Source: an uncultured Candidatus Saccharibacteria bacterium (GTDB lineage Bacteria > Patescibacteriota > Saccharimonadia > Saccharimonadales > JAGQNJ01). From it: a stretch of 64,000 nucleotides of DNA. Position 1 is the stretch's first letter. Every line of letters begins with the position of its first letter. The translations under genes were made by a program, and so were the position numbers. The notes under the pieces were generated by a model. The model was not told the origin of the DNA and ran no database searches. It saw nothing but the letters and a program-made list of their open reading frames with translations. Below, one piece after another: positions 2,813 to 61,375 of this stretch. The stretch is from positions 175,873-239,872 of the forward strand of contig CAZPVO010000001.1 of NCBI GenBank assembly GCA_964590205.1, given 5' to 3'.

Positions 2813-3642
2813 AGGTAATCAGTAATTGGTTTTGTCATTTTCCACAATGATTCGTGAATTTTGCGCTGCATTTGGGCAAATTCGGCGCTTTCAACTTCAA
2901 AGCCGTGGATACGCACACTTTTCAAATAGACGTGCGCATATATGTTGCCATACATTAGTGTATCGCCAGACACTTCAAAAATGCTCGGATCAATTGCACC
3001 GATTGATTCAATTGGCGTTCTCATGGTAGGTGATCCCGGGTATGTGTATCGTCGAATTGATTCGATTGCGTGTTTTGTAGGGTTCATAATGACTCTTTCT
3101 TTGATTCCGCGGCGTCGGGATTCGTCGACAAACCTTGAATAAAATTTCATTCCCACATATCGTCCACGCCCCCAGTCACTCATGACGTATACAACATCGT
3201 CAGTTTTTAGTGAATTCCAGAAAAGTTGCCGGGCTCCAGAGCGATTTTTGTAGACTCGTATCTCTGAAAAATTATCTCTTTTACCTATCGCCACACTTTG
3301 CTTGATTGTCTTTTCGAGCTCGTCCAAATCTCTCGTAAGTCTTTGAATTCTTATCGCTTCATCTTCTAGTCCATGACGCATAGTACCGATGCTATATGCT
3401 CGGATTTTTTTGTATTTGTCATGGATTACTTCTTCGATGATACCAAGCTCGAATAGCTTGCTTAGGCAGTCATAAACTGATGTTCGCGCGATTCCAGTTT
3501 TGGCAACGATTTCCTGGACTCTTAAGTCACCAGTTTTTATTAGTAAAAGATAAATATCGCATTGATATGGCGAAAGGCCAAACTTCATAAGTTCTAACTT
3601 AATCAAATCTCCGTCAGTCATAGGGGTAGGATGATGTCGCAT
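2809..3642 (-). CDS. TrmB-family winged-helix transcriptional regulator (start uncertain: 3642 or 3621; the track start 3723 would overlap the divergent gene)
   Basis: N-terminal HTH region FGLSPYQCDIYLLLIKTGDLRVQEIVAKTGIARTSVYDCLSKLFELGII resembles the TrmB N-domain. It is divergent from the gene at 3717. Confidence 0.6.
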   Translation of the reverse strand: MRHHPTPMTDGDLIKLELMKFGLSPYQCDIYLLLIKTGDLRVQEIVAKTGIARTSVYDCLSKLFELGIIEEVIHDKYKKIRAYSIGTMRHGLEDEAIRIQRLTRDLDELEKTIKQSVAIGKRDNFSEIRVYKNRSGARQLFWNSLKTDDVVYVMSDWGRGRYVGMKFYSRFVDESRRRGIKERVIMNPTKHAIESIRRYTYPGSPTMRTPIESIGAIDPSIFEVSGDTLMYGNIYAHVYLKSVRIHGFEVESAEFAQMQRKIHESLWKMTKPITDYL

Positions 3643-4691: not shown

Positions 4692-5185
4692 CGGAAGTTT
4701 GTAAATTGTAGCGGGAAGTCGAACGGTTGGCTTTTGAGCAGCTGCATCACAAGTTGTAGCTCGTCCTTTTTTGCGCTGGTCACACGGACTTCTTCGCCCT
4801 GAATCTGAGTTTTAACTTTCGGAATTTTTTCTTTTACCAGTTTGGTAATTTGCTTAGCCTTTTCTTGATCAAGTCCCCGAAGAAACGGAACTTCTTTGGA
4901 GGTCTGCAGATTATTGTTAGTGGACTCTTTTGAAACATCCAACACTTTTTGGCTTTGTTCACGTGCAGCTAACTTTTTACGCAAAATATCGGTGATCGCA
5001 TCAATTTGATAATCACTGTCGCCAATAATTTTTACACCAGTTTTATCGCTGTTGAGCCACTCAATAGCAGCTGGCGTGCCTTTAAAGTCATACCGAGTTT
5101 GAATTTCACGCAAAACTTGGTCGAAAACGTTGTTCATCTCGGCCTTGTCGTAATCGCTGACTACATCAAATGAGAAGTTTGCCAT
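4688..5185 (-). CDS. yajQ: YajQ-family nucleotide-binding protein (UPF0234)
   Basis: MANFSFDVVSDYDKAEMNNVFDQ...RYDFKG...QIQGEEVRVTS...PLQFTNFR is collinear with YajQ. The start is refined to the internal ATG at 5185. Confidence 0.8.
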   Translation of the reverse strand: MANFSFDVVSDYDKAEMNNVFDQVLREIQTRYDFKGTPAAIEWLNSDKTGVKIIGDSDYQIDAITDILRKKLAAREQSQKVLDVSKESTNNNLQTSKEVPFLRGLDQEKAKQITKLVKEKIPKVKTQIQGEEVRVTSAKKDELQLVMQLLKSQPFDFPLQFTNFR

Positions 5186-5186
5186 A

Positions 5187-5354
5187 TCACAAGTTTCGCA
5201 CCACACGAGCCTGCTGTCCAGCAGAGCTGGCCACACTGCTCGTGTTGCTAGCGCCCTGCTGTGTCAAAAGCTCCGTTGCTTACTCGTCGTATGGTCCGAC
5301 TTATTCCGCGACTCGCTTTTTCCTTGCACTGCATCTAGCTGCGCAAGTTGTGAC
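5187..5354. repeat. Palindromic intergenic element, copy A (between divergent yajQ and pheS)
   Basis: Terminal inverted repeat tcacaagtttcgcacc (5187-5202) against gctgcgcaagttgtga (5339-5354), 13 of 16 complementary. Internal stem 5201-5210 against 5238-5247. Its left part matches copy C and its right part matches copy B. Confidence 0.45.
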
Positions 5355-5370
5355 ATTACCGGTATGGAAC

Positions 5371-5379
5371 TGGTATAAT
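5371..5379 (+). promoter_or_regulatory. Extended -10 box (TGGTATAAT), 9 nt before the pheS ATG
   Basis: Direct read; no SD in between. Confidence 0.5.
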
Positions 5380-5388
5380 CATCCTAAG

Positions 5389-6423
5389 ATGACTTATCAA
5401 AATAAGAAAGTTGCCGAAGTCGCAGCTAAACTGACAAAACGCATTGAAGGTTTGGAAAACAAAGCCAGTATCCTTCGTGCACCTGAACTCAAGGCGCTGT
5501 ATGACGAAATGAAGGTTATTAAGCCAGAAGAGCGCGCGGCTTTCGGTAAAGAAGTTAACCAGCTCAAGAATGAACTACAAAAGCTGGTTGATGAAGCCCA
5601 CGACGCTAGCGAAAAGCTGGCACCAATCGATGTAACAGCGCCGTTTGACGTTAACACACCGAATGAATTGAAACCGCAGATTTTACGAGCCGATCAAGGT
5701 AGCAAGCACCCTCTGATGGTTGAACTCGATAAAGTTATCGATATTTTTGCGCGCATGGGTTTTATACATATGGACGCTCGCCAAATTGACGACGAATATC
5801 ACATGTTCGATAGCTTAAACTTCCCAAAAGGCCATCCGGCCCGTGATGATTACGATACATTTACAACAACTGACGGTTTAGTCGCACCAGCGCATGCCAG
5901 CATTATGCAAAACCGCCTGCAGCGTGCATACAAAGCAAATCTAGAAAAAGGCAAACCAATCGGTGTTGTCTACACAGGTCGTAGTTATCGTAATGAAGAT
6001 GTTGATGCAAGGCACGAACATACCTTTTATCAGGTTGAAATCAGCTACATTGATAAAAATATCAATGCTGGTAATTTAGTCGCAACCTTTAAAACCTTCT
6101 TGAGCGAATATTACCAAAAAGAAGTCGAAGTAAAGATGCAGCCGTTTTATTTTCCGTTTACCGAGCCAAGCTTTGAAATGGCACTGAGCTGTCCTTTTTG
6201 CGACAAGAAAGGCTGTAACATTTGTGGTGAGGGCTGGATTGAGCTTCTGGGCTGCGGCATGATTAATCCGAATGTGCTGAAAATGGGCGGTATCGACCCG
6301 ACAAAATACACCGGCTTTGCAGGTGGTTTAGGTCTGGATCGGCTCGTCATGATGAAATACGATATCGAAGACGTCCGGCACTTCCACTCCGGTAAATTAG
6401 AATTTCTGAGGCAGTTCTCATGA
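5389..6423 (+). CDS. pheS: Phenylalanine--tRNA ligase alpha subunit
   Basis: Class II aaRS motifs (HPARD, FRNE-like SYRNEDVDARHEHTFYQVE, GFAGGLGLDRL). The start is refined to ATG 5389. The upstream 73 codons of the track ORF are read-through of the intergenic repeat. Confidence 0.9.
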   Translation: MTYQNKKVAEVAAKLTKRIEGLENKASILRAPELKALYDEMKVIKPEERAAFGKEVNQLKNELQKLVDEAHDASEKLAPIDVTAPFDVNTPNELKPQILRADQGSKHPLMVELDKVIDIFARMGFIHMDARQIDDEYHMFDSLNFPKGHPARDDYDTFTTTDGLVAPAHASIMQNRLQRAYKANLEKGKPIGVVYTGRSYRNEDVDARHEHTFYQVEISYIDKNINAGNLVATFKTFLSEYYQKEVEVKMQPFYFPFTEPSFEMALSCPFCDKKGCNICGEGWIELLGCGMINPNVLKMGGIDPTKYTGFAGGLGLDRLVMMKYDIEDVRHFHSGKLEFLRQFS

Positions 6424-8924: not shown

Positions 8925-10173
8925 TTTTTGACAGTTCGTTTTTAATCGTATCTGACGGTGAATGCGTACGCTTTGCGAGCAAGATAAACGGTAGTGCCAA
9001 AATCTCAAACGCGGCACCCACAACATAAGATGTGCCGTATCCCCAAACGTCGGCTGTTTTACCAAGAATAGGTTGAATCACAGCCGCCCCAGCTGAGCCG
9101 AGCAAATTGTCAGATGATAACAGCGTGGCTCGTTGTGCAGACGGAATTAAACCATTGAGGTAAGACATGCGAACTGGAACGCTCGCAGCATACAAAGCTC
9201 CCCAAATTGCTAGCAAAATTAGCACAAGCCAGAAGTTAGATGTCAGTCCGATTGCAGCGAGTGTTGCAGCACCAAACGCAATGTTGAAGAACAAGAATGA
9301 TGTGCGTTTTTTGAAAATCTTGCCAACAAACGGAACGCTCAAGCCACCAATAATTTGCGTGCCGGCCACAATTGCTGCGGCCAATCCGGCTATAGCATAC
9401 GCAGACTGCTTACCGTACAACTGAAGTAAATACGGTTGCATAGCATAGAATGCGTAGAACAATACACCGCTCACAAACGGACCGGACAGCATAATCCAAC
9501 GAACTGACGGTCTGCGCAGACCTTGGTCCCATGAGGCTTTGACAATTTTGCGCATTTCTGTGCCAACGCGTTCGCTCTTTCGCGGTGTAAAGCCGACATC
9601 CTTCATGAGTATAAACGCCACAATAAAAGTGAGTGCCAAAGCGGCTGAGCGCAAAATATACGGCACTCCGAGATTAGTGACCTGCGCGATCACACCACCG
9701 CCAATTGTTCCGGTCAGCATAGCGATTCCGCCAGCGATTTGGCCTTTGGCAAACGCACTATCGAGCGATTTTTTATAACCGGTGGCTTTCAGTCCGTCAA
9801 CCAGCCACGCTTCGGTTGCACCAGAGAAGAATGTAAAGCCAAGTCCAAGCAAAATTGAAACTATCGCCCACCAAACAAATGGTCCATGAATCTTCCATAA
9901 ATACAGATACATTAAAGTTGATATAAACAGAGTGGCAGAACCCAGTAAATATGAAGCACGACGACCCACTGTATCAGCTACCACACCGGTCGGTACTTCA
10001 AACACCACTTGACCGACTGTGAAAAAGGCATTGGCCGCAAATGCTTGAGTAATCGATAGCCCAGCATTGAGCAAGAAGAGAGTGTTAATTCCCCAAATAA
10101 ATGAAGAGGCAAAAGTAGATAACAAAGTTAGCGTCACATACGTTCGCAAAATCTGTTTAGGAGTAGGCCGCAT
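8899..10173 (-). CDS. MFS transporter
   Basis: About 12 predicted TM helices and a GVVADTVGRR loop (the MFS D-R/K-x-G-R-R/K motif between TM2 and TM3). The start is refined to ATG at 10173. Confidence 0.75.
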   Translation of the reverse strand: MRPTPKQILRTYVTLTLLSTFASSFIWGINTLFLLNAGLSITQAFAANAFFTVGQVVFEVPTGVVADTVGRRASYLLGSATLFISTLMYLYLWKIHGPFVWWAIVSILLGLGFTFFSGATEAWLVDGLKATGYKKSLDSAFAKGQIAGGIAMLTGTIGGGVIAQVTNLGVPYILRSAALALTFIVAFILMKDVGFTPRKSERVGTEMRKIVKASWDQGLRRPSVRWIMLSGPFVSGVLFYAFYAMQPYLLQLYGKQSAYAIAGLAAAIVAGTQIIGGLSVPFVGKIFKKRTSFLFFNIAFGAATLAAIGLTSNFWLVLILLAIWGALYAASVPVRMSYLNGLIPSAQRATLLSSDNLLGSAGAAVIQPILGKTADVWGYGTSYVVGAAFEILALPFILLAKRTHSPSDTIKNELSKTTDARPQA

Positions 10174-13802: not shown

Positions 13803-14051
13803 ATGGCTAAAGACATTACAATTTACACTACCAACACCTGCGCCTACTGCGTGATGGTCAAAAGGTGGCTACAAGCAAAGGGAATGTCTTACAACGAAAT
13901 TAATTTGGACGAGAATCCTGACAAGCAGTCCGAAGCATTGGAGCTTTCCGGAGCATTGAGTGTTCCTGTTACTGTTGTTACAAAACATGATGACAGTCGA
14001 GAAGTTGTTATTGGGTATAATTTATCTCAACTAGCCCCAGCTGTCGCTTAA
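13803..14051 (+). CDS. Glutaredoxin-like protein (NrdH/Grx family)
   Basis: CAYC redox motif at residues 13-16, VPV and GYN motifs, 82 aa. SD aagggga. Confidence 0.75.
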   Translation: MAKDITIYTTNTCAYCVMVKRWLQAKGMSYNEINLDENPDKQSEALELSGALSVPVTVVTKHDDSREVVIGYNLSQLAPAVA

Positions 14052-14172
14052 AGATCTATTTTGAACGGCACAGTGCGGTGTCGAAGCTTCCGTGCTTCGT
14101 TCACCGTACTTTTATGTACGGCTCACTCCAGTACTCAACTTCTCCTAGCACTGCATTCGTCAAAATAAATCT
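14052..14172. repeat. Palindromic intergenic element, copy B (between the grx-like gene and trxB)
   Basis: The arms agatctattttgaacggcacagtgc... (14052 onward) and ...gcactgcattcgtcaaaataaatct (ending 14172) are largely complementary. Central perfect hairpin ccgtac-ttttat-gtacgg at 14104-14121. Confidence 0.5.
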
Positions 14173-14184
14173 AATAACGTGAGG

Positions 14185-14190
14185 TATAAT
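14185..14190 (+). promoter_or_regulatory. -10 box TATAAT, 10 nt before the trxB ATG
   Basis: Direct read; no SD in between. Confidence 0.45.
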
Positions 14191-14200
14191 AAACGAACAT

Positions 14201-15130
14201 ATGAGTGAGGAAAAACAGAAGATCCATGAGCTAGTAATTGTTGGAGCTGGGCCGGCGGCGCTCAGTGCGGCGATCTATACAACTCGTGAAGATATTGAGA
14301 CGGTATTGCTCGAAAAAGCAGTTCCAGGGGGGCTAGCTGCAGTTACAGATTGGGTTGATAATTATCCCGGCTTTCCAAAAGGCATCTCGGGCCTCGATTT
14401 GGCTGATAACCTGCGCCAGCAAGCCGAGCGCTTCGGTGCTGTTATCGAACCTGCCGAAGTAACGGCTATTGAAGACGAAGGCGATCATAAAGTACTAACA
14501 ACGACGGACGGCGAAGTAAAAGCTCGTGCGGTGCTCATTGCTACAGGTTCGGACTACAAAAAAATTGGCGTGCCTGGCGAAAAAGAGTTTTATGCCCGCG
14601 GCGTGCATTACTGCGCCACCTGTGATGGCGCATTTTACCGCGACAAAAAAATCGTTGTGGTTGGTGGTGGTAATTCGGCAGTTCAGGAAGCTTTATTTTT
14701 GACAAGGTTTGCCAGCCATATTGATATGCTGGTCCGCAGCACACTCAAAGCCTCGGATGTCCTCATTCATGAATTAGAAAAAAATGACAAAATCACTGTA
14801 CATCTTGGCACGACAACTGACGAAATTGTTGGTAAAGACAACAAGGTAACAAAAGTTTTGGGCACACATGATGGTAAAAAAGTTGAATTCGAAACTGACG
14901 GTGTTTTTGTATTTGTTGGCCTGCAGCCAAATACACAGTTTTTGCAGCACAACACAGCGATTCGCTTAGACGAGATTGGTTTTGTGATTGCTGCAGAAGG
15001 GCTGCAAACTTCTATGAAAGGCGTGTTTGCCGCTGGTGATGTACGATCAGGTGCAACCATGCAAATCGCCAGCGCGGTTGGCGAAGGAGCCACAGCGGCT
15101 CTGAGAATCCGCGAATACCTAGAAAGCTAA
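14201..15130 (+). CDS. trxB: Thioredoxin-disulfide reductase
   Basis: GAGPAA FAD site, CATCDG redox centre, GGGNSA NADPH site, GDV...Q. Confidence 0.9.
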   Translation: MSEEKQKIHELVIVGAGPAALSAAIYTTREDIETVLLEKAVPGGLAAVTDWVDNYPGFPKGISGLDLADNLRQQAERFGAVIEPAEVTAIEDEGDHKVLTTTDGEVKARAVLIATGSDYKKIGVPGEKEFYARGVHYCATCDGAFYRDKKIVVVGGGNSAVQEALFLTRFASHIDMLVRSTLKASDVLIHELEKNDKITVHLGTTTDEIVGKDNKVTKVLGTHDGKKVEFETDGVFVFVGLQPNTQFLQHNTAIRLDEIGFVIAAEGLQTSMKGVFAAGDVRSGATMQIASAVGEGATAALRIREYLES

Positions 15131-25278: not shown

Positions 25279-25371
25279 CCACAGCTTTTCCACAGTGTGT
25301 TTGCTCTCGGGTATCTCTTGGGGTATGCTTATGCTTAAGATACGTCAAAAAGAAAGGGCACCACTTTAAAA

Positions 25372-25956
25372 ATGAAAAAACTCAACCAACATGGAATAGC
25401 AGGAACAATGGTCGCATTGATCATCGTATTAGTTTTAGCAGTTGGCGGCGTCGGCTACTACGTCTGGCATGCCAAAAAAGCAACTGAGAACACTTTGAAC
25501 AACACTTCTAACAGTATTGGCGAACCAAGTAAGTCAACAAAAAAGACGGCACCTACCTCACAATCGACTGTAACTTCCAAAAAATATCTTGAGATAAAGG
25601 AGCTGGGAATTAAGTTTGAATTAACAGATAGCATTGCTGATGCATATTATTATATTGATCCAAAAGTACCAGATGTTGCAACGTTATCGATTACATCGCT
25701 GAAAGGTACCGATCAATGTGGTGCCGATAAGGTTGGAATCGGACACGTTTCAAAAGGGTTAAAGACTGATAAGTATGGTGAAACGAATGATACATTTGAG
25801 AAGCTTGCTCAAACTGGCGGAAAAGTAATTGGCAACTACGCCTACGTTTACTTTGGTCCACAAGCTGCTTGTAGTGACAATCAGCAAACAGAAGCAAAAG
25901 CATTAGCTACTCAAAAAGAATTTGTGAAGCAGATGTCAACAATTCAGGCACTTTAG
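25372..25956 (+). CDS. Pilin-like N-terminally anchored protein, type A paralog 1
   Basis: MKKLNQHG|IAGTMVALIIVLVLAVGGVGYYVW, then a KYLEIKELGIKF domain with two Cys. Confidence 0.6.
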   Translation: MKKLNQHGIAGTMVALIIVLVLAVGGVGYYVWHAKKATENTLNNTSNSIGEPSKSTKKTAPTSQSTVTSKKYLEIKELGIKFELTDSIADAYYYIDPKVPDVATLSITSLKGTDQCGADKVGIGHVSKGLKTDKYGETNDTFEKLAQTGGKVIGNYAYVYFGPQAACSDNQQTEAKALATQKEFVKQMSTIQAL

Positions 25957-25977
25957 AAAAATAACTTAAGGTCAAAT

Positions 25978-26775
25978 ATGAAAAAACTCAACCAAAAAGG
26001 TTTTACTGCATTCGAAATAATCCTCTTAATTGTTGTGCTATTGCTGATTGCAGGAGCTGGCTACTACGTCTGGAAACTGCGAAGCGCAAACAAACCGGCC
26101 GGTGACACTTCTCCAAGTAAGCCTCACACATCAGAGAAAAAAGAAGAGCCAAGGGCTTACGATGTTTCTGGTCTTGGAGTAAAGCTAAAATATCCCAAAG
26201 ATTGGGGGGAGGCTACTTTAGCAGACGGACCTATTATGTCTCCCGGTACAGGCTCTTACAAACAGCTTACATTTTCTAGTCAAAAAAATATTAATATTAA
26301 CTTTGTTGTCGGGGCTTATAATAGCCCACTTGATGGCTGTGGCCTCGGCACCCCTGAAGAAAATGAGAAGCATGCACTCAATGCTGTAGAAGCATCTGTA
26401 ATAGGATGGGACGCCACCAATGTTAAGAGGTATATGTCAGGCCAAGGGACACCTGCAAAAGTTTATATGTACAGCATTAAGCCTGGAGAGATCGGTGATG
26501 GTTGGGTGAGTGTCTCGACAAGCGATAAAGTACTTGAATATAAAGACATTGATAGTGAATCAAACCGCTGGAAAGCTGACTCTGCGGGGCTTGCTTGCGG
26601 TACTGTTACCCAAGCACAGGCAGATGCGGCAAATGCATATAAGAAGTATGTCCATTATGCGGTAAACGTTTCAAATGATAAGTTTAAAGGTGCTAATGCA
26701 CAATATGATGCAAGAACAAATGATGATTCAGCACTCCGTGCGAAAATAGTAACAGTTCTTAATAGCATCCAATAG
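25978..26775 (+). CDS. Type IV pilin-like protein with canonical prepilin motif, type B paralog 1
   Basis: MKKLNQKG|FTAFEIILLIVVLLLIAG has Gly at -1, Phe at +1 and Glu at +5. The C-terminal domain begins with LKYPKDW. Confidence 0.65.
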   Translation: MKKLNQKGFTAFEIILLIVVLLLIAGAGYYVWKLRSANKPAGDTSPSKPHTSEKKEEPRAYDVSGLGVKLKYPKDWGEATLADGPIMSPGTGSYKQLTFSSQKNININFVVGAYNSPLDGCGLGTPEENEKHALNAVEASVIGWDATNVKRYMSGQGTPAKVYMYSIKPGEIGDGWVSVSTSDKVLEYKDIDSESNRWKADSAGLACGTVTQAQADAANAYKKYVHYAVNVSNDKFKGANAQYDARTNDDSALRAKIVTVLNSIQ

Positions 26776-26782
26776 GAGATAT

Positions 26783-27379
26783 ATGAAAAAACTCAATCAA
26801 ACGGGAATCGCAGGCACACTTGTTGCACTCATAATAGTACTAGTCTTGGCGGTTGGAGGCGTTGGCTACTATGTTTGGCACACCAAGCAGGCTACTGACA
26901 AGACTCTCAACGACACTTCTAATAGTGTCGGCGAACCAACTAACGCAACTTCAAAAAACACTACTACTTCAACGACCACAAAACCAGCCGACAGTATTAA
27001 ATACCTTGCAATAAAGGAGTGGAAGGTAGAGATTACACTTTCCGTTGCGACAAAAGATACACAATATGCTTTTGCGAACGGCAGTAGCTCAACTGTATAT
27101 ATATATTCTAAAACCGTTGCTGATAAGTATGCCGGCTGTCAAGGTGGAGGCTATACGCTTGTTAGAGCTAATGGTAATGATACGATTGGCAATACTACTT
27201 ATGAAGCGGCAGCCAAGGATCCGCAATCAGGTTTTAATAAAGATATAAAGAAGGTAGGCGACTATTATTACAGAAGAGTTAGTCATCAAGTGTACTGTAC
27301 TAGCCAGTCTACAGCAGATGAAAAAGCGGCCTCTGCGCTACTGAGCCCGACTTTCGATACGCTGCAAGTAACTAACTAA
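26783..27379 (+). CDS. Pilin-like N-terminally anchored protein, type A paralog 2
   Basis: MKKLNQTG|IAGTLVALIIVLVLAVGGVGYYVW. Its linker and KYLAIKEWKVE domain parallel the gene at 25372. Confidence 0.6.
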   Translation: MKKLNQTGIAGTLVALIIVLVLAVGGVGYYVWHTKQATDKTLNDTSNSVGEPTNATSKNTTTSTTTKPADSIKYLAIKEWKVEITLSVATKDTQYAFANGSSSTVYIYSKTVADKYAGCQGGGYTLVRANGNDTIGNTTYEAAAKDPQSGFNKDIKKVGDYYYRRVSHQVYCTSQSTADEKAASALLSPTFDTLQVTN

Positions 27380-27391
27380 AAAGGAACAGAT

Positions 27392-28066
27392 ATGAAAAAA
27401 CTCAACCAACAAGGAATCGCCGGCACTCTTGTAGCACTCATCATTGTACTTGTGCTCGCTGTAGGCGGCGTCGGCTACTACGTCTGGAAAATGCGAGGCG
27501 ACAGCAAGCCAGCTGGAGACACGGCGCCTAGTAAGCCACGAACAAGCACAAAGAAAGAGGCTGAAAAGCCAGCCCCAGATCCAACAGCTGATTGGGCGGC
27601 CTATTCGAACAAAGAAGGACAATTTTCGTTCAAATATCCTAAAACATGGGTACAGGCAACTCATCCAGAATTATGTAGCCCGGGTATTGCCCTGTTTGGT
27701 GCAAGTACTAGCTCTGTTGGCGTTTGTGCCTCAGAAAGTTTTGGTCAAATGAGCTTTATTTCACAGGCTGGTGATAAAACAGCCGAAAACCGAGAGACGA
27801 GCACAGATTATCTAGACATTACCTCAGAGACATTTACGATAAATGGAGTAACAGGCACAAAATATAGTGGTACCTATAAAGCCCCTCATGACCACACTGC
27901 ACAGCCCGTACCTGCACCTGGCACGAAATCGATAAATTATGTTATAGCTGCAAATGGGAGAACCTACACGATGTCCTATCAATCTGCTAACGCGACATCA
28001 ACGTACCCAGATGCGCTTAATGACTTCAATACACTCGTAACAAAAACCTTTAAGTTTACTCCTTAA
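27392..28066 (+). CDS. Pilin-like N-terminally anchored protein, type B paralog 2
   Basis: MKKLNQQG|IAGTLVALIIVLVLAVGGVGYYVW. Its KPAGDTAPSKP linker and FKYPKTW domain parallel the gene at 25978. Confidence 0.6.
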   Translation: MKKLNQQGIAGTLVALIIVLVLAVGGVGYYVWKMRGDSKPAGDTAPSKPRTSTKKEAEKPAPDPTADWAAYSNKEGQFSFKYPKTWVQATHPELCSPGIALFGASTSSVGVCASESFGQMSFISQAGDKTAENRETSTDYLDITSETFTINGVTGTKYSGTYKAPHDHTAQPVPAPGTKSINYVIAANGRTYTMSYQSANATSTYPDALNDFNTLVTKTFKFTP

Positions 28067-45600: not shown

Positions 45601-46224
45601 CCTATCAGTAGCTTAAATGTGGATCATCACAATAAACGTGTTGCTGTTGGTGGCAGTATTGTCGATGCCAGGGAGATAATTACCAGAAACGGTCAAAAAA
45701 TGGCCTTTGTAAAAATTAGCGATGAGCATTCAGAAATTGAAGTCGTACTGTTTCCAAGTATTTACCAGCAAACACTGGGCATTTGGGAGCGAGATAGAGT
45801 AGTTATTGTTAAAGGTAAAGTCTCTGCCCAGGATAAAGACGGTAATACATCGAACGAACTTAAAGTGTTGGCGGACGATGCGCGTGAAGTGACGCATGAA
45901 CAAGCTTCCGCTTATCAGCCAACTGGCAAAAAACCACCAATTCCGAAGGCAAGTAAGGCTAAACATATTTCTAGCGCCAGCAAGCCGGTAACGAATGAAA
46001 CCCATCGATTATACTTACGTTTACTCGATAGCAAGGACAGCGATCTATTGCTGACACTCAAACAGACAATTGATGCAAATCAAGGTGATCATGAAGTAGT
46101 TCTTGTACTTGGTCCAGATGAAGGCAAACAAGTCGTTAAATTGCCAGTTAAGTTTTCGCCCGAAAATGAGGCAATGGACAATATTATTGAGCTTATAGGT
46201 GCTGACAACGTCAAACTAGCTTAG
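42613..46224 (+). CDS. dnaE: DNA polymerase III alpha subunit
   Basis: PHP domain (HLHNHTQYSLLDG), the polymerase core GRGSGASS ... PDFDIDI, and an OB fold. The start is moved to ATG 42613 because TATAAT at 42596-42601 overlaps the TTG start in the track. Confidence 0.93.
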   Translation: MGNKVTLKQSDYVHLHNHTQYSLLDGLTKVPALMEVVQKSGMEAVAITDHGTLSGAIEFYKSAHAHKIKPIIGMETYIAARTHLDKEPEKDKPNYHLIILAKNNVGYQNLMRLSTIANLEGFYYKPRIDHQLLEKYHEGLIVLSGCIGGEVGDALRQDQYAKAVEIASWYKSIFGDDYYLELQDHGHPEHPNKWQEQMSVNEQLQKISKELNIPCVVTCDAHYLKHEDQTAHEILLCVQTGSFLSDEKRMSLSDFDLHVMEPEQVIKRWADNPEAIKNTKKIADKCDVTIELGKYLIPKFPVPKGENEKSYLDMLTYQGLVQRYSPDEKPAKTLSAIKKQLPKEVVERAEYELGVIDRMGFNGYFLIVQDFINWGKNEGIVFGPGRGSGASSIVAYGLRITELDPLKYDLMFERFLNPDRISMPDFDIDIQDSRRDEVIQYCVEKYGSNRVANIATFGTMAARNAVRDVARVLQVPYAESDRLAKSIPPPVQGRHIPLAKSLKENPELAEEYKSNEQTKEVFDLAVRLEGTIRSHGVHAAGVVIAPDEIVKFVPLEMAQKGVVATQYSMGPVEELGLLKMDFLGLSNLTIIKNTLRIIKRVYGEDIDINSVSMDDSKTYELLRAGDTTGVFQFESAGMKRYLKELKPNQFEDIIAMVALYRPGPMAEFPRFIEGKNNPSSITFLHPSLKAVLGDTYGVIVFQEQIIALLQLIAGYSPGEADLIRKAIGKKKRDIMESEQPRFIEGCLKQGLTEAGAKKLWALIQPFADYSFNKAHAACYALIAYQTAYLKAHYSAAFMAALMTSDFDDTDRLAIEINECKHIGIDVLPPDINESFVEFAVVPHKNQVRFGMAAIKNVGTGAVEEILRARQIDGTFMSLEDFFSKVSPRVVNRKTIESLIKAGAFDKFDNRSTLLHNIDVLLAYASRIHKQLASGQTDLFGNSEELNHHGKPQLKLESEQDEIPLSEQLLWERELLGLYLSQHPLDAYKSLLAEQSAPISSLNVDHHNKRVAVGGSIVDAREIITRNGQKMAFVKISDEHSEIEVVLFPSIYQQTLGIWERDRVVIVKGKVSAQDKDGNTSNELKVLADDAREVTHEQASAYQPTGKKPPIPKASKAKHISSASKPVTNETHRLYLRLLDSKDSDLLLTLKQTIDANQGDHEVVLVLGPDEGKQVVKLPVKFSPENEAMDNIIELIGADNVKLA

Positions 46225-46241
46225 CTAACTTCACACCGATC

Positions 46242-46339
46242 AGCCTGTCATCCAACAGAGCTGGCTGCGCTGCTGATCTCTTTGACTCATGCACAATTTT
46301 CTTCTGCGCTACTCCTGAGCAGTATTATCTATACAGCTC
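46242..46339. repeat. Palindromic intergenic element, copy C (between convergent dnaE and the CAP-domain gene)
   Basis: agcctgtcatccaacagagctggc (46242-46265) matches copy A at 5208-5231 in 20 of 24 positions. Nested stems gagctg/cagctc and ctgct/agcag. Confidence 0.4.
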
Positions 46340-46388
46340 AGTCCATTGCTCAAAGAAAAACTGCACCTGAGTCTAAAGTGTGAAGTTG

Positions 46389-47321
46389 CTACAAGATCAG
46401 GCCGACTTGTCTGGTAAAGAAGAAACTTCCAAGAATAACAAGTACCAAAATGACATCGACAGCCGGGTGAGTAACGACAAACTTCTCGCCCTTCTTTATC
46501 GAACGTTTGATAGCCAGACTATGCTTAAGGGCAAAAATCGCAATGGCTGCACCCATAACAAATGTAATTGTAGGAGTGATCCATGGGTACTTACTGCCCG
46601 TCAAGAGATCAATTCGACTGACAGTTTGTGGCTTTGAAGTTGGAGAGCCTTGCTGAGAAGTATTATATGACGTACTAGATACACTCCCCGAAGGGGTACT
46701 GGTGAAGCTAACAATTGGCGCTTCACTTGACGAGCGACCATACATGGCCACAACAACAGTCGAGGGGCCACTATTGTTATAGTTGTTACTACTGGCAATA
46801 CCAAAACCAACATCCAAAAAATCACCATCAAGGAGGTTTTGACGATGTGGTGGGCTATTCATCCAGCCATCAACAGTTGCGCTGCTATCTTTAAATCCAT
46901 ATGCCAGATTTTCTCCAGCTTTTTGATAGCTATAACCAGCATTACTTATAAATATCCAAGGCGGGTTGCCATCAGGGGTATTGTGCGACCAGTAATTGCG
47001 GGTAACCATATCCTCGGCTTTGGCTTGAGCTGCTGAATTTAGCTGATCGTTTAACCTCAAAGCACCCTTACTATTACTGGCTCTGTCTTTATTTGTAGCC
47101 GTAAGCAGACCTTGGGAGTTAGTATTGGTAGAGATAGCAAGTACGGAATGTGGCGATGGCTTAAAGACAACTGGTTTGAGCAACATAAGACCAACAACTA
47201 ACACCGTTACTAGCGGCAAGTATGGCCAGTAATGTTGAAGGTATTGTTTAGTATGTTTGTGTTTTGGGCGTAAGTTTGAATGATTTCTTTTATCACGCCT
47301 GATCACGCTACGCGCGGGCAT
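46389..47321 (-). CDS. CAP/SCP/PR1-like domain protein with N- and C-terminal TM helices
   Basis: YWSHNTPDGNPPW and GENLAYGF ... GWMNSPPHRQNLL are CAP-domain motifs. The start is refined to ATG 47321, 6 nt after a TATAAT box. Confidence 0.7.
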   Translation of the reverse strand: MPARSVIRRDKRNHSNLRPKHKHTKQYLQHYWPYLPLVTVLVVGLMLLKPVVFKPSPHSVLAISTNTNSQGLLTATNKDRASNSKGALRLNDQLNSAAQAKAEDMVTRNYWSHNTPDGNPPWIFISNAGYSYQKAGENLAYGFKDSSATVDGWMNSPPHRQNLLDGDFLDVGFGIASSNNYNNSGPSTVVVAMYGRSSSEAPIVSFTSTPSGSVSSTSYNTSQQGSPTSKPQTVSRIDLLTGSKYPWITPTITFVMGAAIAIFALKHSLAIKRSIKKGEKFVVTHPAVDVILVLVILGSFFFTRQVGLIL

Positions 47322-61229: not shown

Positions 61230-61244
61230 CGGCGGCTTTGCCTT

Positions 61245-61298
61245 TTGAGAGGGGAACATCCCCTCTCAACGCGCCAAGCAAAAAATGTGATTTTTGCT
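61245..61298 (+). other. Two consecutive perfect hairpins downstream of the gene at 60243
   Basis: ttgagagggg-aacat-cccctctcaa (61245-61269) and agcaaaaa-atgtga-tttttgct (61277-61298). Neither has a clear U-tract. Confidence 0.4.
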
Positions 61299-61357
61299 CG
61301 GGCTCTCTCCCCTGAAATCTATTGAATTACTTACTTCTTTTACATATCGCAAGTTTT

Positions 61358-61366
61358 TGATATAAA
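61358..61366 (+). promoter_or_regulatory. Extended -10-like box (TGATATAAA), 9 nt before the radA ATG
   Basis: Direct read. Confidence 0.4.
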
Positions 61367-61375
61367 CTAGGCGCT

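Follow-up and report, generated by a model that had tools for sequence, protein, structure and literature searches.

The stretch of DNA analysed here, 64,000 nucleotides (nt) of contig CAZPVO010000001.1 from an uncultured Candidatus Saccharibacteria bacterium (below, the window), contains between the glutaredoxin-like gene grx and the gene trxB an imperfect palindrome of 121 nt, which belongs to a previously undescribed family of elements in one clade of Saccharibacteria (TM7). This palindrome, here called element A, is probably a copy of an old family that has had an insertion history like that of miniature inverted-repeat transposable elements (MITEs) or ERIC elements, and whose functional form is a fold of the single-stranded minus strand, most likely as RNA. 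A search of the literature on Saccharibacteria and Patescibacteria revealed no account of an element of this kind. Rfam 15 has no match in the whole window at its gathering thresholds, its E-value mode returned only noise for element A and for a second copy, element B (12-17 bits against thresholds of 33-66), and the window contains no tRNA or tmRNA genes.

Element A occupies positions 14052-14172 on the minus strand. The first-pass annotation of this DNA had described there an imperfect palindrome of about 120 bp, with coordinates and sequence that proved correct; aligned with its own reverse complement, the element scores 24, compared with -16.2 ± 7.2 (maximum 7) for 300 shuffled sequences, which excludes chance. 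The nearly reverse-complementary arms of about 34 nt that had been noticed at its ends measure 34-35 nt and match at 25 of 36 alignment columns. The element lies in the 149-nt spacer between grx (13803-14051, 82 amino acids, Pfam PF00462) and trxB (14201-15130), antisense to both genes; its 3' end abuts the TAA stop codon of grx (14049-14051, plus strand) and its other end faces the promoter region of trxB. According to the fold, the covariance-model matches and the orthologues, it forms a single rod-like hairpin, which we call type 1. The minimum free energy (MFE) is about -48.8 to -53.1 kcal/mol on the minus strand and about -39.2 to -44.4 kcal/mol on the plus strand, with z-scores of -4.85 and -3.54, respectively, and none of 200 shuffles is as stable. 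The hairpin ccgtac-ttttat-gtacgg recognized earlier at 14104-14121 is present and constitutes the apex of the conserved fold (CCGTAC, a 6-nt loop and GTACGG; alignment columns 53-59 with 67-73), in which the stem is kept and covaries across the family (columns 59/67 are U-A in 12 copies and C-G in 10), while the sequence of the loop is variable. Of the gaagc/gcttc hairpin proposed at 14083-14098 only the pairing potential stands: it exists in the sequence, but is unused in the covariation-supported structure, where GAAGCT of element A pairs with the far arm to form helix 2.

The window contains exactly three copies of the family, all on the minus strand: A, B (5187-5353) and C (46225-46388). 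They were detected by a covariance model (R1) built from nine aligned copies, which included A and B but not C; it scores A at 118 bits, B at 96.5 bits and C at 40.9 bits (E = 5e-10). A broader model (R2) matches the same three with 111, 88 and 59 bits, the next-best match to the covariance models in the window reaches only 13-16 bits, and with R2 additional copies were found neither in the window nor in 642 kb of DNA from relatives. The similarity between A and the yajQ/pheS spacer, which had been proposed from short shared blocks, is thus borne out by R1, with C, absent from the training set, as an independent check. It is invisible to BLAST: blastn-short searches of A, B and C against the window return only chance-level matches (E > 1), so that a sequence search alone would miss the family. 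Folding of the larger spacers of the window likewise shows long hairpins, stabler on the minus strand, in the yajQ/pheS and dnaE/CAP spacers, which have a 33-nt block in common. The copies in the window are only 36-52% identical to each other, and their termini are unrelated.

Elements B and C represent a larger variant, type 2. Element B (167 nt, minus strand; covariance-model match at 5235-5350, fold of -65.7 kcal/mol) fills the spacer between the divergent genes yajQ and pheS and ends 1 nt short of the yajQ start codon; it comprises a closing stem P1 (5340-5353 with 5187-5200), the rod P2 (about 5246-5339) and a 3' hairpin P3 (5203-5245). Element C (164 nt, minus strand; match at 46276-46380, fold of -71.4 kcal/mol, z about -7.9) occupies the entire spacer between the convergent dnaE and CAP-domain genes and has the same parts: P1 (46378-46387 with 46227-46236), the rod (about 46280-46377) and P3 (46238-46278). 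The outermost pairs of its terminal stem are made of both stop codons (TAGC...GCTA), as the TAG of dnaE (46222-46224, plus strand) is paired with CTA (46389-46391), which is complementary to the stop codon of the CAP-domain gene.

Beyond the window, the 60 closest TrxB proteins in the genome collection are all from metagenome-assembled genomes of Saccharibacteria or Saccharimonadales. The grx-trxB synteny is kept in relatives, with spacers of 0 to about 290 nt, and a subset of them has the homologous hairpin. R1 finds a copy at the grx-trxB site in the TrxB loci L001, L010, L014, L018, L024, L027, L036 and L060, and a second copy in L010 upstream of ppa; the orthologues of A at this site are those in L001/L097, L096, L010, L014, L018, L024, L027, L036, L060, L093 and L106. 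In L096, L097 and L010 the terminal stem includes the stop codon of grx, which is TAG there. A degenerate pattern of the family core matched 15 metagenome contigs, which hold 20 copies, and gave no matches among viral contigs, leaving a phage origin unsupported.

Relatives have about 20 further distinct copies, spread over about 12 unrelated loci. Apart from grx-trxB, the contexts are housekeeping genes, with copies downstream of ssb (ahead of rpsR) and of gyrB, upstream of nusA and of ppa, on either side of a pilin gene, and between uvrC and an ABC transporter. Together with the three copies in the window they substantiate the earlier view of a dispersed element, for which an absence of further copies and of covariation had been named as the refuting outcome. 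Some copies resemble each other more closely: both L010 copies contain GCGCGG, and the apical loop is identical in L083, L095 and the two copies of L084. A single pilin gene between pilM-like and pilC-like genes has, in L084 (5188-6094) and also in L086, a type-2 copy on each side, both oriented alike.

Compensatory changes, which had been put forward as a check on the element, are abundant. For the nine-copy alignment RNAalifold predicts 36 pairs, 30 of which exhibit compensatory double changes. Among 23 distinct copies, 93% of the pair cells contain standard pairs, compared with 30-44% when the 3' partners are slid along the alignment; the cells changed at both positions number 212 versus 23-45 with slid partners, the covariation score is 0.71 versus 0.07-0.15 in controls, and none of 500 shuffles reaches any of the observed values. 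The rod that emerges from this analysis consists of short helices broken by four 2x2 internal loops, in all of which 5'-GA-3' is opposite 5'-GA-3' (columns 30-31/94-95, 38-39/86-87, 47-48/78-79 and 51-52/74-75). Two of the four loops have an extra bulged G, and the strands share a pseudo-symmetric arrangement of GA, 5 bp and GGA. From general knowledge of RNA structure, we read the four loops as putative tandem sheared G·A pairs. The type-2 subfamily, which comprises B, C, L083, L095 and the two copies in L084, adds to the rod a 3' hairpin, whose 8-bp outer stem covaries throughout, and a closing stem; here 33 of 52 pairs covary, including those in P1 and P3, and the model shows these copies as a predicted three-way junction.

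The two strands of the element are not equivalent. In the modelled strand of the 23 copies, G·U or U·G pairs outnumber A·C or C·A combinations by 63 to 20; the modelled (minus) strand is stabler than its complement in 21 of the 23, by 8.4 kcal/mol on average; and the four loops read GA/GA on the modelled strand and UC/UC on the opposite one. For these reasons the minus strand is taken as the strand that folds, and both the compensatory pairs and the strand asymmetry expected of a structured single-stranded element are observed. Cumulative GC skew rises steadily over the whole window (1-64000), in which most genes are on the plus strand and all three copies on the minus strand; from the positive skew, the plus strand is taken as the leading strand and the minus strand as the leading-strand template. 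Where the flanking genes are co-directional, the 3' end of the element abuts the stop codon of the upstream gene or overlaps it by 1-3 nt, an adjacency much of which follows from the compactness of the genome (empty spacers measure only 0-38 nt). Element B is in the sense orientation directly upstream of yajQ, and both C and the L095 copy follow a gene in the sense orientation. In L082, two copies 2.4 kb apart are in opposite orientations among genes that all run in the same direction.

The history of insertion is clearest for B. The yajQ-pheS spacer is 202 nt long in the window, but only 38 nt in L096 (whose PheS is 82% identical), L097 (OZ246406.1) and L105; the 167 extra nt in the window begin 1 nt from the yajQ start codon. 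With an empty site in three relatives, element B is, on this sequence comparison, a lineage-specific insertion. The empty spacer, which starts CCATACCA, reads ...CCAT|ACCAACAG...TGGTATACT...|ATG; at the junctions the empty site has GCCATACCA and the filled site GCCA-TA-[element...CAT]-TA-CC, which can be explained by a duplication of TA or CAT(A) only on the assumption of one indel or of asymmetric ends. C and several orthologues of A are likewise bordered by TA, although this dinucleotide is self-complementary and a part of stop codons. The element is missing from the C site in the contigs of two more distant relatives (the site is unoccupied in L103), which are too distant to provide a clean empty site; when the C-terminal half of DnaE was used as query, most matches were fragments of distant proteins, with at most 64% identity.

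Element A, by contrast, has been retained. It is 91% identical between the window and L097, whereas in grx, trxB, pheS and the FKBP-domain gene fkbp third codon positions show only 42-47% identity, i.e. saturation, and first and second positions 81-96%. In the comparison with L096 the identity is 78% for the element and 45-52% for third positions. Since its identity is far above that of the saturated third positions, element A is under strong purifying selection, and among the differences between orthologues there are compensatory pairs (CAG/CUG to CUG/CAG, U-A to C-G). These comparisons show the resident copy as subject to purifying selection, unlike a decaying MITE. Element A is old: the copies at the grx-trxB site cluster like the TrxB subclades, which implies vertical inheritance, with several losses.

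Next to the element are sequences that resemble promoters. A TATAAT box (14186-14191, plus strand, in GAGGTATAAT), conserved in L097 in the spacer alignment, lies about 9-10 nt upstream of the trxB ATG and is likely to be the trxB promoter if read as a -10-only site; a scan for two hexamers found no full sigma-70-type site at trxB. For pheS there is a promoter-like site at 5350-5379 on the plus strand (-35 GTGACA, an 18-nt spacer and TG-TATAAT; 11 of 12 matches), the -35 hexamer of which is the terminal hexamer of element B. Both at trxB (14176-14203) and at pheS (5365-5391) the ATG follows 9-10 nt after the end of a (G)GTATAAT box and lacks a Shine-Dalgarno sequence, which suggests leaderless or nearly leaderless mRNAs. 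The genes that follow the element in L088 and L096 have Shine-Dalgarno-like sequences. On the minus strand the complement of the trxB box reads TATTAT and precedes the 5' end of element A by 13 nt; in L001 the corresponding complement is TATAAT. Since these complements resemble a -10 box as well, divergent transcription from such boxes into the antisense copies is plausible. No terminator-like site or U-tract was found at A, B or C on either strand.

The suggestion made in the first-pass annotation, that this is a MITE/REP-like element or a small structured RNA gene, is supported by the dispersal of the family, the insertion of B and the strong covariation. Insertions into the very short spacers of a highly compact genome have spread the family, and individual copies have since been inherited vertically, with purifying selection on them comparable in strength to that on sites where a change alters the amino acid. 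We infer from the model that the functional form may be a single-stranded transcript of the minus strand, which would act as a module for recognition by a protein or for processing. Copy B would be the 5' leader of yajQ and copy C the 3' untranslated region of the CAP-domain gene, while A and most type-1 copies, antisense to their neighbours, would be transcribed by divergent initiation at the neighbouring AT-rich, -10-only promoter. If the rod were cut at its base, a stable rod RNA would be released and, in the case of B, also a leaderless yajQ mRNA. As a side effect, the ends of the element may supply parts of promoters, such as the -35 hexamer of pheS.

Several points weigh against this interpretation. 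Transcription of the minus strand, especially of the antisense copy A, is unproven, and neither a full promoter nor a terminator is associated with the element. The strand test has the caveat that the alignment was fitted to a model of the minus strand, and the excess of G·U over A·C combinations becomes modest (34 versus 20) without two wobble columns, one a near-invariant U·G and the other alternating between G·U and G-C. The element is antisense at seven of the eight independent co-directional sites, so that most mRNAs carry the weaker complementary hairpin and the complement or the DNA could be what matters; besides, tandem G·A pairs are stable in single-stranded DNA as well. Finally, no partner protein was identified among the small open reading frames (ORFs) of the window in a Pfam search or among the neighbours of the copies elsewhere; RNA-binding proteins, transposases and integrases are missing from both sets.

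A more far-reaching proposal, which is possible but which we advance only tentatively, is that the family represents a new class of small structured RNA of the ultra-small genomes of the candidate phyla radiation, built on four tandem G·A platforms, in some copies with a three-way junction, which multiplies in the manner of a transposable element and is afterwards retained by its host. Such an RNA, in effect a bacterial counterpart of domesticated RNAs like those of short interspersed elements (SINEs), might serve as a protein-binding or RNA-processing 'punctuation' module that is cut out of transcripts to leave leaderless mRNAs; alternatively, the rod might titrate an RNA-binding protein.

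If the family consisted of purely selfish, non-autonomous MITEs, the palindrome would be no more than the long terminal inverted repeats for a transposase encoded elsewhere, without any function for the host. This account, which we consider unlikely, agrees with the lineage-specific insertion of B, with the small size, non-coding nature, multiple copies and insertion polymorphism of the family, with its patchy presence at the grx-trxB site, and with the TA or CAT(A) on both sides of B and the TA around C and several orthologues of A. The end of B provides an outward-facing -35 hexamer, as the ends of insertion sequences often do, and the GCGCGG shared by the L010 copies and the apical loop shared by L083, L084a, L084b and L095 are also in its favour. 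However, a dead MITE would decay, and the identity of element A to its orthologues is 91% and 78%, at a distance where synonymous sites are saturated (42-52%). Within one genome, A (AGATCTATTTTG), B (TCACAAGTTTCG) and C (CTAACTTCACAC) have termini that bear no relation to each other, which is hard to reconcile with recognition by a single transposase; no copy has a transposase gene nearby in the loci read; and the asymmetries between the arms, namely the four GA/GA loops and the wobble columns, are kept across the whole family. A folded single-stranded DNA site, i.e. a substrate of recombination or transposition comparable to the bottom strand of integron attC sites or to the hairpins of HUH systems (IS200/IS605, REP-RAYT), would also explain a strand-specific fold, with its structure conserved and the sequence of its stems very variable. 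The stability of tandem G·A pairs in DNA, known in general, would fit, and so would a folding strand that is usually antisense to the flanking genes and abuts stop codons, like attC bottom strands, as well as the common orientation of the three window copies in a region of uniform GC skew. We nevertheless regard it as quite unlikely: the template exposed in replication is that of the lagging strand, whereas the stable minus strand is taken as that of the leading strand, the two L082 copies 2.4 kb apart among co-directional genes are oppositely oriented, the flanking genes are housekeeping genes in conserved synteny without cassettes, the ends lack the attC core GTTRRRY, and in none of the loci read is there an integrase or a Y1 transposase.

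The element could also act in the plus-strand mRNA, where the complementary hairpin would be a terminator, a 3' stabilizer or an intercistronic processing site like REP and ERIC sequences, since it directly follows stop codons and the mRNA carries this hairpin at seven of the eight co-directional sites. In L088, moreover, rpsR has only a Shine-Dalgarno sequence after the element, so the operon mRNA must read through it. This explanation is very unlikely, as the plus-strand fold is the weaker one in 21 of 23 copies and has A·C mismatches at conserved positions and UC/UC loops; neither a U-tract nor a terminator-like site was found at A, B and C, B lies between divergent start codons, where a 3' element would be needless, and C and the L095 copy are oriented oppositely relative to the gene they follow. 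Lastly, a palindromic operator specific for trxB or for redox regulation has its sole support in the position upstream of trxB, and it had been disfavoured from the outset. The same element stands beside pheS, dnaE, ssb, gyrB, nusA and other unrelated genes, by which a trxB-specific operator is excluded, and its 121 nt with conserved internal loops far exceed the size of an operator. A chance palindrome is contradicted by the shuffles and by covariation, and for either of these explanations we see practically no room.

By broad kind, the element can be filed as a small structured palindromic intergenic repeat. Its behaviour is closest to that of the ERIC, Correia, RUP and REPIN-type intergenic palindromes, while its orientation and position resemble those of integron attC sites. 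ERIC (or IRU) sequences are imperfect palindromes of about 120-130 nt, intergenic, non-coding and often transcribed; orthologous sites may have or lack them, conservation extends over long distances, and an RNA hairpin has been proposed as their constrained form. The Saccharibacteria element is like them in length, dispersion, insertion polymorphism and covariation, but it occurs in an unrelated phylum, and its copies differ by their 36-52% identity within one genome, their orientation bias, the four GA/GA loops and the extra hairpin of type 2, a distinction drawn from general descriptions of ERIC. Correia elements (NEMIS) of Neisseria and RUP of Streptococcus pneumoniae are MITEs of 100-160 nt with inverted-repeat ends, which insert at TA next to genes, can donate parts of promoters and fold as RNA hairpins. 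They share with the present family the TA flanks (B, C and several orthologues of A) and the gift of a -35 hexamer (the end of B). Their copies, however, are near-identical and have termini matching a transposase, whereas here the termini differ wholly from copy to copy, purifying selection is apparent and the covarying rod extends over the whole length.

REP and BIME sequences are intergenic palindromes located after stop codons, like the element described here, and REPINs are doublet hairpins of about 100 nt with long-term vertical inheritance, which are thought to act as single strands. In contrast to them, no RAYT gene is present in the loci read, there is no short repeated REP unit, and the copies do not cluster around a master sequence; their low identity within a genome, 36-52%, is an argument against this system. 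Integron attC sites, e.g. the Vibrio cholerae repeats, are imperfect palindromes of 60-140 nt after stop codons, in which the folded bottom strand is the functional one and structure is conserved more than sequence. The orientation and stop-codon adjacency of our element are similar, but it has neither a cassette array nor an integrase at the loci read, its ends lack the RYYYAAC/GTTRRRY core, its core sequence is conserved and its neighbours are housekeeping genes. The conserved purine-rich internal loops (AAGGA, CUGGA, CGGA and the four GA/GA), the pseudo-two-fold 'GA, 5 bp, GGA' arrangement and the several divergent paralogues per genome bear a likeness to rod-like protein-binding small RNAs with repeated purine motifs, such as sponges of the CsrB/RsmZ type or RNAs with tandem G·A or K-turn platforms. 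Unlike in CsrB/RsmZ and K-turn RNAs, the GGA motifs are in internal and not in hairpin loops, the bulges are of 1 nt, and there is no match in Rfam.

Other identities were considered and rejected. An intrinsic terminator does not fit, as no G+C-rich stem followed by a U-tract occurs at A, B or C on either strand, nor does a K-turn, which has a bulge of 3 nt and not 1. A T-box would be on the wrong strand for pheS, domain V of group II introns is resembled only by AGCCGUA at the apex, and SRP RNA, 6S RNA and 5S rRNA were checked against the sequence and dropped. The copies of the family are single and dispersed, not tandem as in TIGR-Tas guide arrays, which are tandem arrays of short dual-spacer units beside a Nop-domain gene and occur in parasitic bacteria (PMC12045711).

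The genomes of Saccharibacteria are smaller than 1 Mb and contain almost no spare DNA, which makes any non-coding sequence that is kept informative, and among the few spacers of larger size, several (three in 64 kb) are filled by elements of 120-170 nt. To our knowledge, essentially no non-coding RNA beyond the universal ones is known in this phylum. A function at the RNA level, if true, would mean a new and easily testable family of non-coding RNA there; a function at the DNA level, if true, would point to an unrecognized system of single-strand recombination or transposition.

The element also has consequences for annotation, because it causes errors in gene starts, and the end of B, with its -35 hexamer, reshapes the pheS promoter. 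In the public record PheS is a protein of 417 amino acids (100% identical to that of the window), for the ORF that begins at ATG 5170 (5170-6423) crosses element B without a stop codon; as the homologues have 342-345 amino acids, translation almost certainly starts at ATG 5389. ORFs are over-extended in this way for TrxB in L001 (ORF start at 2875) and for UvrC in L083, too. A Logan contig of the same species (L104), in which the first genes of the window are 100% identical, ends at its position 9467 inside yajQ, just short of B, possibly an assembly break caused by the hairpin of this element.

A few further observations concern the spacers of relatives and other parts of the window. In L015 the grx-trxB spacer contains a different, long and very stable hairpin (2852-3000; -64 kcal/mol, z about -10) that neither covariance model matches; it has CTGGAGCGAGG on the opposite arm and could be a rearranged relative or a second family at the same site. 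The grx-trxB spacers of L011, L037, L048 and L056, 244-289 nt long, have no palindromic element and seem to hold a small plus-strand coding stretch, where GGCGC(T/C)GA(T/C)TGGTG(T/C)GC(T/C)GA(T/C)TGC would read G-A-D-W-C-A-D-C, with a thioredoxin-like CxxC. In the window, apparent gaps at 17.7-19.5 kb in a crude ORF map turned out to be artefacts, the region being occupied by rpiB, rpe and transketolase genes. Four adjacent paralogous genes at 25370-28066, a region without a copy of the family, begin with a common 98-nt 5' region (63-81% identity) coding for MKKLNQ.GIAGT..., which looks like pilin-type signal and N-terminal helices. The spacer at 61230-61375 folds into strong hairpins with a perfect 11-bp stem (TGAGAGGGGAA/TTCCCCTCTCA; MFE of -45 to -51 kcal/mol, z about -5 to -5.7), which have no relation to the family described here and could represent a terminator.

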